From Escherichia phage vB-Eco-KMB23, in sequence record OR525702.1: 64,000 bases of DNA; one strand, given 5' to 3'. Shown piece by piece: positions 35,882 through 38,739 of this stretch. The translations under genes were made by a program, and so were the position numbers. Each line of letters opens with the position of its first letter. Position 1 is the stretch's first letter. The notes under the pieces were generated by a model, which was given only the letters and a program-made list of their open reading frames with translations, made no database searches and was not told the origin of the DNA.

Positions 35882-35906
35882 AAAAAGCCCCAACCTTTTG
35901 GTCGGG
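35882..35906 (-). terminator. Rho-independent terminator
   Basis: Minus strand CCCGACC-AAAA-GGTTGGG then GCTTTTTG. Confidence 0.6.
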
Positions 35907-35916
35907 ACTAAGAATG

Positions 35917-36390
35917 TTATTTGATTTGTTTAGCAGACCAAATGCGGTCTTTAATAATTTTTTGGATGTCTTCAACATACTCGAGAGAATGAGCATGTGG
36001 GTTATCTTTAAAGCTATGAGCACGAGCTAGCTTTTGGCCTTCAGTTTTGATTACTAAAAGCTCTTTAAGGATAGCTTCATATTTGGAGATAATTCCTTTA
36101 ACGATATTTTTTTCTTGTGCGACTTTAGGATCTGCTTTAGGAGCAGGTTTACCCGAAGCCTTTGCAAAAGCAGCGCCAGTAGCAACTAAACTTTTCCAGG
36201 CCATACTAACTGCATTTCCCGTAAATCCTTCCGCTTTCATGTCGCGTGCGAACTGGAATCGTGATTCATCAGAAGCATCTTTGTAAGAATATTTACCCGC
36301 TGCAATGGCTGCTTTTGCGACAGCTTGAATTTCGGTGCTAGATGCTTCATTTAACACCGCTTCATTTAAAAATTGAGTATATGATTTCAT
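35917..36390 (-). CDS. Internal-protein-like (capsid-targeting sequence) protein, 157 aa
   Basis: N-terminus MKSYTQFLNEA resembles the IP capsid-targeting sequence with L-x-E cleavage motif; Ala/Lys-rich body. Confidence 0.6.
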   Translation of the reverse strand: MKSYTQFLNEAVLNEASSTEIQAVAKAAIAAGKYSYKDASDESRFQFARDMKAEGFTGNAVSMAWKSLVATGAAFAKASGKPAPKADPKVAQEKNIVKGIISKYEAILKELLVIKTEGQKLARAHSFKDNPHAHSLEYVEDIQKIIKDRIWSAKQIK

Positions 36391-36440
36391 CTTATTTCCT
36401 GTTTTAATTCGTGGTTTTAATATACTACTATATTTATACC

Positions 36441-36468
36441 AAAAAGCCCCAACCTTTCAGTCGGGGCT
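36441..36468 (-). terminator. Rho-independent terminator (homologous to the 35882-35906 element)
   Basis: Minus strand AGCCCCGAC-TGAAA-GGTTGGGGCT then TTTTT; ends the tRNA/small-RNA transcription unit. Confidence 0.6.
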
Positions 36469-36479
36469 AAGCCTTGCGG

Positions 36480-36780
36480 CAACCTTGTCGGGGTTCCACC
36501 TGCTAAGGCAAGTGTTTGTACGAAACGCCGGGATTCGAACCCGGTTATTAAGTAGTTGACGCTACTCAATATTTTAAAAGGCCATATCTCGACCATATCC
36601 GAACGTTCCGTCAAAAACGCTACTCGGTTTACGGCAAACATATTTCCTCGAATCGATAATTCGGTGCGCCGTTTCTGCTGTGATAGTAAAGAGCCAGAAC
36701 ACAGTAAAACTGTGGGAGGAAACTATACTCCAGGGAACATCAGTCCGACGACTTACCGGTAGCGACCCGGTTTCTTAGTA
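36480..36780 (-). ncRNA. Putative stable small RNA region (T4 species 1/2 RNA-like), partly tRNA-like
   Basis: Non-coding stretch between tRNA cluster and a strong terminator; contains a perfect T-arm-like CCGGGTTCGAATCCCGG (minus strand) but no canonical cloverleaf found by eye. Confidence 0.25.
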
Positions 36781-37125
36781 TTCTTTTAAAGCATCAACCT
36801 GTTCACGACGTTTACGCCATAAATCAATTACTTCATACGCAGATTCAGCATTTCGAATTGGACGGCATTTATATAAAGACTTGTGATTTTGATATTGTGT
36901 AGATAACGGAATTTTATCTAAAAGGTCTTTACGTTCAAAATATTCGTAACCATCTAAACCAAATGAACGATTTTTGAGAAATTGCCAATGACCAAATTCG
37001 TTTTCGACATAAACATAATCTGCATGCTGATAAAGCAAATTAATTACACGTTCAGAAATAACAGTATCATTATGATTAAAATAGAATGTTAAATCATGAA
37101 CTACTAAATAAACATTACCTTTCAT
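36775..37125 (-). CDS. Hypothetical protein, 116 aa, inside the tRNA region
   Basis: ORF track. Confidence 0.45.
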   Translation of the reverse strand: MKGNVYLVVHDLTFYFNHNDTVISERVINLLYQHADYVYVENEFGHWQFLKNRSFGLDGYEYFERKDLLDKIPLSTQYQNHKSLYKCRPIRNAESAYEVIDLWRKRREQVDALKEY

Positions 37126-37143: not shown

Positions 37144-37219
37144 TGGTCGAGGCAGTAGGGATCGAACCTACGACCCAGGACTTAGAAGGTCCTTGCTCTT
37201 CCTTCTGAGCTATGCCCCG
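37144..37219 (-). tRNA. tRNA-Arg (anticodon UCU), CCA encoded
   Basis: Manual cloverleaf: acceptor CGGGGCA/TGCCTCG, anticodon loop CTTCTAA, T-arm GTAGG-TTCGATC-CCTAC. Confidence 0.8.
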
Positions 37220-37223
37220 TAAT

Positions 37224-37299
37224 TGGGGTGACCGATGGGAGTCGAACCCATGACTACGAGAATCACAATCTCGAGTTCTACCAACTGAACTACGGCCAC
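37224..37299 (-). tRNA. tRNA-His (anticodon GUG), CCA encoded, no encoded G(-1)
   Basis: Manual cloverleaf: acceptor GTGGCCG/CGGTCAC, anticodon stem CGAGA/TCTCG, loop TTGTGAT. Confidence 0.7.
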
Positions 37300-37413
37300 A
37301 TTAATACCTACTCCAACAATCATGATGTCTTCACACGAAATTAAGAGAAGAGTGATCAGTTCAACCCCTATAATCGCGTCAAGTAGATATTAATGTGACA
37401 GTTGTCACAAATT

Positions 37414-37488
37414 TGGCGGACGTGATAGGATTCGAACCTATAACCAATCGCTTAACAGGCGATCGCTCTGCCATTGAGCTACACATCC
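37414..37488 (-). tRNA. tRNA-Asn (anticodon GUU)
   Basis: Manual cloverleaf: acceptor GGATGTG, anticodon stem ATCGC/GCGAT, loop CTGTTAA, T-loop TTCGAAT. Confidence 0.7.
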
Positions 37489-37492
37489 AAAT

Positions 37493-37579
37493 TGGTGGGG
37501 AGTGGTGGAGTCGAACCACCCGAGTCGCAATGACAATGGATTTACAGTCCACACCGCTACCTCTACGGGATAACTCCCC
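37493..37579 (-). tRNA. tRNA-Tyr (anticodon GUA), long variable arm
   Basis: 87 nt; anticodon loop CTGTAAA; class II variable arm; T-loop TTCGACT. Confidence 0.7.
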
Positions 37580-37591
37580 TAATTCATAATT

Positions 37592-37666
37592 TGGTGGCCC
37601 TGGGTGGAATTGAACCACCATCTGGCGATTATGAGTCGCTTGCTTGAACCTTCCAGCTACAGGGCC
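37592..37666 (-). tRNA. tRNA with CAU anticodon (Met, or Ile if lysidine-modified as for T4 tRNA-Ile)
   Basis: Anticodon loop CTCATAA; acceptor GGCCCTG/CAGGGCC. Confidence 0.65.
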
Positions 37667-37667
37667 T

Positions 37668-37743
37668 TGGTGCTGATTGACGGAATCGAACCGCCGACCT
37701 TCTCATTACAAGTGAGTTGTTCTACCTACTGAGCTAAATCAGC
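37668..37743 (-). tRNA. tRNA-Thr (anticodon UGU)
   Basis: Acceptor GCTGATT/AATCAGC; anticodon stem ACTCA/TGAGA, loop CTTGTAA; 1-nt spacer from previous tRNA. Confidence 0.8.
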
Positions 37744-37748
37744 AAAAC

Positions 37749-37838
37749 TGGCGGAGGCGATAGGATTTGAACCTATGAGTCGCCGGAGCGACTGCCGGTT
37801 TTCAAGACCGGTGCATTAAACCACTCTGCCACGCCTCC
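37749..37838 (-). tRNA. tRNA-Ser (anticodon UGA), long variable arm
   Basis: 90 nt; anticodon stem CCGGT/ACCGG, loop CTTGAAA; T-loop TTCAAAT. Confidence 0.8.
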
Positions 37839-37844
37839 AAATAT

Positions 37845-38495
37845 TTATATATTGTTAATTTGATTTAGAATTCTTTTTGCTTGAGTATGACTTACACCAA
37901 TATGCTTAGCATATTTAGATAATTCACCACGTTTAGAAAAATCATATAATTTAGAAATTTCTATTCTTCTTTTTCTTTCATCCGCAGAAACTTTTGATTC
38001 GTTTGCTTTTGCTATTTTACGTTTAGCTTCTTGAGAATGAGTTTTACCAGCAAAGCCATTCTTCATTAATCCATTTGAAGACCATCCTTTTAATTTTCCG
38101 TTAGAATGTGCCTTTTTAACACCCAATGAAATTAATTCGCGTTGCTGATCTGTCATAGGATAATTATTTATATGATCCCATCCACCTTCACCGCCGAGTT
38201 TTAAATTATACACATCTGGTTTATTTAAAAACTCTTCTGTGACAATATTTTTCTCAGCTTCAAGCATAGATTCTTTATCATCAAAATACTCTAATATTTC
38301 TTTAGAAAAATTTTCTATACCATATTTATCTTGGGCTCTTTTTAATAATTTACCAGAACCCATATATCCATCATCTAAATTTTCGGTAGAATGCACACCA
38401 ATATAAATTTTATTATTAATTTTATTTGTTATTTTATAAAGATAAAAATGCATATCAGTCCCTAATAAAGAACTGAGCGTCTCACGACGAGTCAT
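37845..38495 (-). CDS. segB: GIY-YIG homing endonuclease (SegB-like) embedded in tRNA cluster
   Basis: GIY-YIG module FYLYKITNKINNKIYIGVHS; C-terminal basic helix-turn-helix-like region; start codon ambiguous (38495 or MHFYLYK at about 38453). Confidence 0.75.
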   Translation of the reverse strand: MTRRETLSSLLGTDMHFYLYKITNKINNKIYIGVHSTENLDDGYMGSGKLLKRAQDKYGIENFSKEILEYFDDKESMLEAEKNIVTEEFLNKPDVYNLKLGGEGGWDHINNYPMTDQQRELISLGVKKAHSNGKLKGWSSNGLMKNGFAGKTHSQEAKRKIAKANESKVSADERKRRIEISKLYDFSKRGELSKYAKHIGVSHTQAKRILNQINNI

Positions 38496-38499
38496 AAAT

Positions 38500-38573
<74 letters not shown>

Positions 38574-38578
38574 AAATT

Positions 38579-38665
38579 TGGTGCGAGAAGTGGGACTCGA
38601 ACCCACAAGGAAATCATTCCGCAGCATTTTAAGTGCTGTGCCTTTACCAATTTGACCATTCTCGC
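38579..38665 (-). tRNA. tRNA-Leu (anticodon UAA), long variable arm
   Basis: 87 nt; anticodon stem CAGCA/TGCTG, loop CTTAAAA; acceptor GCGAGAA/TTCTCGC. Confidence 0.8.
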
Positions 38666-38666
38666 G

Positions 38667-38739
38667 CTGGGAATAAAGGACTCGAACCTTTGCATCCTGG
38701 AATCAAAATCCAGTGCCTTACCAACTTGGCTAATTCCCA
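38667..38739 (-). tRNA. tRNA-Gln (anticodon UUG), 3' CCA not encoded
   Basis: Anticodon stem CTGGA/TCCAG, loop TTTTGAT; acceptor TGGGAAT/ATTCCCA; abuts tRNA-Leu with 1-2 nt spacer. Confidence 0.75.

Follow-up and report, generated by a model that had tools for sequence, protein, structure and literature searches.

Bacteriophage T4 has been known since the 1970s to make two small stable RNAs, species 1 and species 2. In the T4 record (NC_000866) they are annotated directly after tRNA-Arg, as rnaD (locus name T4s002; "small, stable RNA; species 2 RNA") at 71171..71053 and rnaC (T4s001; "species 1 RNA") at 71046..70908. The transfer RNA (tRNA) cluster of T4 is made as one primary transcript of ~1.75 kb that ends after the species I gene (SegB paper, PMC2330249). 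During T4 infection RNAC has been confirmed by Northern blot, and both RNAC and RNAD have been classed as late RNAs "of yet unknown functions" (2022 omics study, PMC9697503). When the T4-like phage BW1 was evolved on E. coli ECOR34, one convergent single-nucleotide polymorphism (SNP) was found in all lines, and it was in rnaD (2025, PMC12685909). No function or secondary structure for rnaC or rnaD was given in the literature searched, which dated from 2010-2025. The interval analyzed here, positions 36480-36780 of a 64,000-nucleotide (nt) stretch of Escherichia phage vB-Eco-KMB23 (record OR525702.1; the whole stretch is referred to as the window), had been described in an earlier note as a non-coding region with a perfect tRNA T arm and no complete cloverleaf, and as either a stable tRNA-like small RNA like those of T4 or a decayed tRNA gene.

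The window belongs to a T4-like phage (Tequatrovirus), and over the interval it was 98.5-99.8% identical to its closest DNA relatives, Escherichia phages ECP52, EC121, and G4507. The interval aligned to T4 rnaD and then to T4 rnaC, in the same order, on the same strand, and at the same place after the tRNA cluster, and the match extended across the trailer to the first part of the terminator stem, at which point the compared T4 stretch stopped. The parts of the unit in the window were as follows:

36663..36778, minus strand: rnaD ortholog (species 2 RNA), ~116 nt, with ends set by homology only.
36519..36656, minus strand: rnaC ortholog (species 1 RNA), 138 nt, with ends set by homology to the T4 annotation.
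36469..36515, minus strand: 3' trailer from rnaC to the terminator, conserved with T4.
36440..36468, minus strand: intrinsic terminator of the tRNA/rnaD/rnaC unit, a 10-pair stem (36468..36445) with 6 G-C pairs, followed by TTTTTGG.

The rnaC copy was identical to T4 rnaC at 135 of 139 positions (97%) and was followed directly on its 3' side by an invariant CAA (36518..36516). The rnaD copy was identical to T4 rnaD at 95 of 121 aligned columns, differing mainly in a middle of ~45 nt that had diverged, and a linker of 6 nt lay between the two RNAs. A covariance model built here (R1) scored 153 bits at rnaC, its single match in the window, and did not pick up the true tRNAs. In the window rnaC lay downstream of ten tRNAs and rnaD and upstream of the terminator at 36468..36445, all on the same strand, so that the sequence family, the order, the strand relative to the tRNA genes, and the terminator were all shared with T4. 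The window differed from T4 in having a 116-amino-acid (aa) open reading frame (ORF; phrog_3355) between tRNA-Arg and rnaD. By sequence, order, and position, the interval almost certainly holds this Tequatrovirus's orthologs of T4 rnaD and rnaC, and the reading that the earlier note had favored, a stable tRNA-like small RNA as in T4, was borne out. The locus is already known, textbook T4 biology, and the finding is a correct rediscovery; the analysis adds a fold that can be tested and a case against annotating rnaC as a tRNA. The interval had also been said to end at a strong terminator. The terminator is real, with its 10-pair stem and T run, and both G4507 and Aplg8 carry a terminator annotation there, but it lies just outside the interval.

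The fold of rnaC was inferred by comparison in an alignment (A2) of 31 distinct homologues from at least nine T-even genera and a few viral or metagenome contigs. Sampled were Tequatrovirus, Mosigvirus, Gaprivervirus, Dhakavirus, Karamvirus, Winklervirus, Tegunavirus, Kanagawavirus, and a group of Klebsiella phages. All of the elements were 141-144 nt long when measured from the 5' motif to the end of the invariant CAA; they began 4-6 bases (7 in one lineage) downstream of rnaD or of the CCA that ends the tRNA before them, and in several genera tRNAs followed them. RNAalifold predicted a terminal stem (P1), an arm made up of helices P2 to P5, a second hairpin (H2), and the T arm from this alignment, with compensatory changes at 29 of the 39 predicted pairs, and the window copy folded alone gave the same fold (-46.4 kcal/mol, z-score -3.7). 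The elements of the predicted fold in the window, from the 5' end of the RNA, were:

36649..36656, minus strand: 5' strand of P1, UCGAUUCG, the 5' end of the RNA, pairing with 36527..36520.
36584..36643, minus strand: long arm P2-P3-P4-P5, ~60 nt, with the six-base loop UUGACG at 36614..36609.
36580..36583, minus strand: conserved GGCC motif; in the single-sequence fold its CC is paired to G10 and G11, at the foot of the long arm, and its GG is unpaired.
36546..36571, minus strand: H2, a 10-bp stem with the six-base loop CGUCAA at 36561..36556.
36528..36544, minus strand: T arm of rnaC, CCGGGTTCGAATCCCGG (17 bases), with stem CCGGG/CCCGG and loop UUCGAAU.
36520..36527, minus strand: 3' strand of P1, CGUUUCGU, acceptor-like, with the A at 36519 in the discriminator position.

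When the loop-loop helix described below was included, the full model was 91.4% paired, and 31 of its 50 pairs had changed on both sides, a result not reached in any of 500 shuffles; sliding the partners by 1-3 columns left 33-44% paired. The T arm had been reported as perfect, and this held. CCGGGTTCGAATCCCGG had a single match in the window even when 2 mismatches were allowed, and no match in 100 shuffles. Its stem was paired in 100% of the 31 sequences, with compensatory changes at the middle pair (G-C n=16, U-A n=14, A-U n=1). Directly 3' of the T arm, CGTTTCGT-A (36527..36519) resembles the 3' strand of an acceptor stem, as had been proposed, and its pairing partner was found at the 5' end of the RNA. 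The acceptor-like stem that results, P1, has 8 positions, with pair probabilities of 0.79-0.97. Alignment columns 4:138 of this stem were paired in 31 of 31 sequences (G-C n=17, A-U n=14), and columns 3:139 also changed on both sides. A tandem U.U at columns 5:137 and 6:136 was present in 30 of the 31 sequences, phiR1-RT having U-A and C-G instead. In the long arm, on which RNAalifold and the single-sequence fold concurred, P2 was 92.5% paired, P3 and P4 together 95.7%, and P5 96.2%, and 17 of the 21 pairs changed on both sides. Changes on both sides were likewise found at 8 of the 10 pairs of H2, part of which ARAGORN had drawn as a long variable arm.

The divergent homologues were informative as to which strand the acceptor-like 3' strand pairs with. 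The key base of this strand (U in Tequatrovirus, C in other genera) paired with column 4 in all 31 sequences and was unpaired with its cloverleaf partner in 15 of them. In phiR1-RT the 3' strand was wholly rewritten to CGGACUGU, with the 5' end matching it as UCAGUCCG, and the internal "acceptor" strand no longer paired. Karamvirus KaAlpha, Kanagawavirus PEi20, and the Klebsiella phages lacked the internal ACGGAACG and had an unrelated hairpin-1 stem, and they retained the 5' end, the 3' strand, and both loops. The annotated ends of the T4 RNA also match the conserved terminal stem, being the first base of P1 and the base just 3' of its 3' strand, which is what tRNA-like end processing of this fold, and not of a cloverleaf, would predict. 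The covariation model indicates that rnaC probably folds as an acceptor-like terminal stem with a T arm, a four-helix arm, and H2, and not as a cloverleaf.

The window copy of rnaC carried one unique substitution, C to G at position 18 (position 36639). C is found there in nearly all other type-A homologues, including G4507, the nearest relative in the alignment, and the pair is C-G in 27 of the 31 sequences; in the window this P2 pair becomes G.G and is broken.

The six-base loops of the long arm (UUGACG) and H2 (CGUCAA) were exact complements, and all six positions were paired in 31 of the 31 sequences. The pair of loops took three forms: UUGACG/CGUCAA, UUGAUG/CAUCAA in phiR1-RT, and UUGGCG/CGCCAA in the Klebsiella phages. 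The closing positions of both loops were non-complementary in three of four lineages, and variants with an unrelated hairpin-1 stem still presented the same loop. A loop-loop ("kissing") contact is the most likely explanation because the two six-base loops are complementary and co-vary, and with fair confidence the loops of rnaC are predicted to form such a contact, within or between molecules. Kissing complexes are formed by the dimerization site of human immunodeficiency virus type 1 (HIV-1) and by ColE1 RNA I/RNA II, and rnaC likewise has full six-base Watson-Crick complementarity between its loops. The difference is that in rnaC both loops are in one molecule of 138 nt, and that the contact is here proposed from sequence alone.

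There may be a second tertiary contact. The GGCC motif was changed to CGCC in exactly the four sequences (L004, L028, L029, and L038) that have the T loop UGCAU(N)C instead of UUCGAAU. The unpaired GG may therefore contact the T loop in an "elbow" like the one made in tRNAs by the T loop and the GG of the D loop. This is a lead only, and the change may reflect a single evolutionary or recombination event. One further sequence, L016, had the same upstream context as the Winklervirus copies, yet was in the canonical state for both GGCC and the T loop.

Several other explanations for rnaC were weighed against this fold, the first of which is a genuine tRNA-Lys(UUU) with a long variable arm that decodes. 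ARAGORN called such a 94-nt tRNA-Lys(ttt) at 36611..36518, a perfect T arm is present, the 3' strand finds a partner of 8 positions in the internal ACGGAACG, and a tRNA is annotated at this place in several records (tRNA-Lys in G4507, G29, and G4500, and a 95-nt tRNA-Met in PG7). The remaining arms are where this explanation fails, as the earlier note had anticipated when it could fold no canonical D or anticodon arm: the D stem of the ARAGORN cloverleaf has a single Watson-Crick pair and two mismatches interrupt its anticodon stem, and the 94 nt folded alone gave the acceptor stem, a long hairpin, the T arm, and one 4-pair hairpin that is neither a D nor an anticodon arm. The Rfam tRNA model (RF00005, gathering threshold 29 bits) had no match in 36300..36900 even at an E-value of 10, and the other ten tRNAs in the window scored 30-74 bits; the best Rfam match was to tRNA-Sec (RF01852), at 16.8 bits and an E-value of 1.7 against a threshold of 47. 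The anticodon was inconsistent among homologues, being Lys(ttt) in the window and Met(cat) in PG7, with no call in Winklervirus, phiR1-RT, PEi20, MY02, or MY742. In the alignment, the cloverleaf acceptor helix showed no compensatory change, with pair 49:138 broken in 15 of the 31 sequences, the anticodon stem was 72.7% paired, and the internal strand was absent from several lineages. Forcing the cloverleaf acceptor cost 11.4 kcal/mol, its pairs had a probability of 0.0 in the ensemble, and in T4 the annotated RNA is 139 nt long instead of 94. Covariation, energy, and the inconsistent anticodons together rule out the ARAGORN cloverleaf as the conserved fold, and because rnaC has no anticodon arm it cannot decode, so that a decoding tRNA-Lys is extremely unlikely. 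There are real likenesses to class II tRNAs and tRNA-Sec, namely a stem of 7-8 positions, a discriminator-like base, a 5-bp T stem with a UUCGAAU loop, and a long extra hairpin before the T arm, and the 8+5 arrangement of rnaC resembles that of bacterial tRNA-Sec. However, rnaC has no anticodon arm or D arm of normal size, ~60 nt are inserted at the place of the D loop, and the 5' strand of its stem is the RNA's own 5' end, ~130 nt upstream. Neither the ARAGORN search for transfer-messenger RNA (tmRNA) nor the Rfam tmRNA models detected one. Neither rnaC nor rnaD is represented by an Rfam family, and searches at the gathering threshold and at an E-value of 10 returned chance-level matches only. 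The earlier note had held that the lack of a covariance-model match would count against a tRNA-like RNA; the scan indeed returned no match, yet this says nothing against these RNAs because Rfam has no family for them.

The other possibility raised in the earlier note, a decayed tRNA pseudogene that has no function of its own and is carried along in the tRNA cluster, is very improbable and was not supported. The T arm and the acceptor-like strand do look tRNA-derived, H2 is at the position of a class II variable arm, the stretch after GGCC resembles half an anticodon loop, and MX01 and Yersinia phage P8 no longer have rnaC. But its length has stayed constant across nine or more genera, compensatory changes are present at 31 of the 50 pairs of the model, and loop-loop complementarity is kept through three sequence variants; in T4 it accumulates as a stable RNA, and outside the T loop rnaC has no similarity to any tRNA in the window, so no paralogous tRNA was found there. 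Protein coding has the least in its favor and can be given practically no weight. ORFs of 42-74 aa are present on both strands (for example 36641..36417, 74 aa), and small coding sequences are annotated across the homologous stretch in the records of AS6, Clarke_MM3, and Yersinia P8, but these annotations differ in strand and frame between records, substitutions track base-pairing and not codon positions, and 1-base insertions or deletions occur within the ORF among close relatives, the elements of one genus measuring 141, 142, or 143 nt when the trailing CAA is included. The description of the interval as non-coding was accordingly upheld: it is part of ~385 bases without a convincing ORF between the stop of the 116-aa ORF (36775) and the start of a 157-aa ORF (36390). 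A purely cis-acting role, in which rnaC is a processing or stability module of the tRNA operon transcript (an entry site for RNase P or RNase E, or 3' protection) and the stable RNA is a by-product, is less easily dismissed, though still unlikely. Its spacing is tRNA-like, both from the preceding CCA or rnaD and in the few nt before the next tRNA or the trailer, and no other structured unit lies between it and the terminator in Tequatrovirus. It is no 3' cap, however, in Karamvirus, Winklervirus, and Tegunavirus, where it has a mid-cluster position and further tRNAs follow; a 60-nt arm and co-varying kissing loops are not needed for a processing signal, and MX01 has lost rnaC.

The reading preferred here is that rnaC is a tRNA-like RNA with its own fold, made and processed along with the tRNAs. 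The best explanation of the arrangement is that rnaD and rnaC would form the last part of the tRNA operon, transcribed from the minus strand and ending at the terminator at 36468..36445. The terminal stem and T arm would then present an end that is a substrate for host tRNA maturation enzymes, with RNase P cutting at the 5' end and trimming at the 3' end, and the trailer (36469..36515) would be removed during processing, as the annotated T4 3' end suggests. The steps envisaged for species 1 RNA, which are RNase P cutting, 3' trimming, CCA addition, and base modification, are those of general tRNA processing. Processing by tRNA enzymes, with a compact fold, would explain both why the T4 ends fall exactly at the terminal stem and why the RNA is stable. 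RNAs other than tRNAs are known to be RNase P substrates, among them the tRNA-like domain of tmRNA and the C4 RNA of phages P1/P7. Like these, rnaC has paired 5' and 3' ends that form an acceptor-like stem beside a T arm, with a body that is not that of a tRNA, and processing by tRNA enzymes is expected. Unlike tmRNA, rnaC has no evident G3.U70 pair, and its body is predicted to be two kissing hairpin arms.

As to what such an RNA does, the most favored proposal is that rnaC is a non-decoding tRNA mimic, which would probably bind a tRNA-recognizing protein, titrate it, or draw it away in a host-dependent manner. A host-dependent accessory role is hinted at because rnaC has been lost in some phages and because a SNP in rnaD arose during host adaptation. 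A function of this decoy or titration type is possible but doubtful. Less likely again is the more specific proposal that rnaC is a purpose-built mimic, with an acceptor/T-arm end, a possible elbow, and a kissing-locked body, directed against a host factor that recognizes tRNA, such as a tRNA-targeting defense nuclease or a maturation or repair enzyme. If it were true, the 50-year-old orphan species 1 RNA would gain a role in host range or counter-defense.

A number of points weigh against this account. The aligned sequences are related, so the covariation signal is partly shared descent. The terminal stem has the two U.U mismatches in 30 of the 31 sequences and is 65% standard-paired overall, and in Tequatrovirus its 3' strand also pairs perfectly with the internal ACGGAACG; a cloverleaf-like alternative conformer could form, at a predicted 11.4 kcal/mol less stable. 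The loop-loop covariation comes from two lineages only. The two arms differ in length (~24 bp and 10 bp), so that an intramolecular kiss would need a sharp bend, and the loop contact could be intermolecular instead. The fold of rnaD is weakly supported, being no better than that of shuffled sequences (z-score -0.28), and its long-range stem never varies. Finally, reviews and omics papers of 2010, 2022, and 2025 call the function of rnaC unknown. With these points taken into account, the reading as a whole, which combines the orthology of rnaD and rnaC, the fold of rnaC, tRNA-like processing, and mimicry, is still considered very likely, the separate parts being graded where they were discussed.

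The companion RNA, rnaD, was compared across 13 distinct sequences, in which ~44 nt at the 5' end and ~25 nt at the 3' end were nearly invariant and the middle had diverged. There was an invariant 5' hairpin (ACCGG/CCGGU, loop GUCGCUA) and an invariant GUCGUCG that pairs with CGGCG-AC at the 3' end, with variable hairpins between. This structure is put forward tentatively, as a model. The possibility that rnaD is itself a tRNA-like RNA was considered and rejected, as it has no T arm and the stem between its 3' end and the internal GUCGUCG provides no variation to support it. In Winklervirus (Erwinia phage Virsaitis27, L004 positions 1129-1205; also L016 and L028) an unannotated element of ~77 nt was found upstream of rnaC, in the slot that rnaD occupies in T4. 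Its acceptor-like stem is 7 bp long (GGGAGUU/AGCUCCC), its ACCA end is encoded, and at the T-arm position there is a 5-bp hairpin with the loop AUCGUUA, which resembles the loop GUCGCUA of the 5' hairpin of rnaD. It was not called by ARAGORN.

Matches at 80% identity or more were found in 739 phage records, nearly all of them named for enterobacterial hosts. The records of Aplg8, RB68, Kha5h, and T2L carry rnaC/rnaD labels on the same stretch. In others rnaC is mislabelled as the tRNAs or, on either strand, the hypothetical proteins noted above (G4507, G29, G4500, and PG7; AS6, Clarke_MM3, and Yersinia P8), and in most it is unannotated. A covariance model like R1 would mend the missing or wrong annotation in T-even genomes, Rfam having no model for either RNA, and if the fold is not already in papers of the 1970s-80s, it would represent a new structured-RNA family absent from Rfam. 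The comparative fold makes an orphan RNA testable: it rules out decoding and predicts specific compensatory mutants.

Wider searches recovered the same group of phages. A metagenome scan with a loose two-anchor pattern gave 120 matches, mostly ordinary neighboring tRNA genes, of which R1 confirmed six, all T4-like. Scans of IMG/VR yielded 17 T4-like contigs in all, with few new variants. In bacterial genomes a pattern combining the loop and the T arm gave 68 chance matches, none of which was confirmed by R1, so that no cellular homologue with that pattern was found. Within the reach of these patterns, every member of the family came from a T-even phage, and nearly all of these phages had enterobacterial hosts. 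In two phages rnaD was kept and rnaC was gone: Dhakavirus MX01, in which rnaC was precisely deleted (L011, ~800-994), and Yersinia phage P8, in which it was replaced (L012, 801-1487). Because these phages keep only rnaD, the two RNAs are separable modules, and rnaC is dispensable in some lineages.

The ten tRNA genes of the window are clustered at 38739..37144 on the minus strand (ARAGORN, Rfam), and one protein-coding candidate lies between them and rnaD:

37125..36775, minus strand: 116-aa ORF between tRNA-Arg and rnaD, phrog_3355, of unknown function and without a Pfam match.

In T4, rnaD follows tRNA-Arg by one base, and in the window this ORF intervenes. Its TAA stop (36777..36775) is overlapped by the homology-defined first bases of rnaD. 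Because the ORF intervenes and its stop overlaps rnaD, the 5' end of rnaD cannot come from processing of an adjacent tRNA here.

On the other side of the unit is the 157-aa ORF (35917..36390, minus strand; phrog_2280, of unknown function), which is absent from T4. It is flanked by two near-identical terminators, at 36468..36445 and 35909..35886, each followed by TTTTTGGTAT, and T4 has a single terminator. This stretch (35886-36468) resembles a gene cassette that has been inserted, the terminator being duplicated.

Within the tRNA cluster, a 216-aa GIY-YIG/NUMOD3 homing-endonuclease ORF (37845-38495, minus strand) is located between tRNA-Gly and tRNA-Ser. It occupies the exact site of tRNA-Pro in the relatives G4507, Aplg8, and T4, and no tRNA-Pro or remnant of it is left in the window; segB is elsewhere in the T4 cluster. 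The tRNA-Tyr gene (37498-37577, minus strand) passed the 29-bit threshold of the Rfam tRNA model only narrowly, at 30.3 bits, and the other nine tRNAs scored 59-74 bits.

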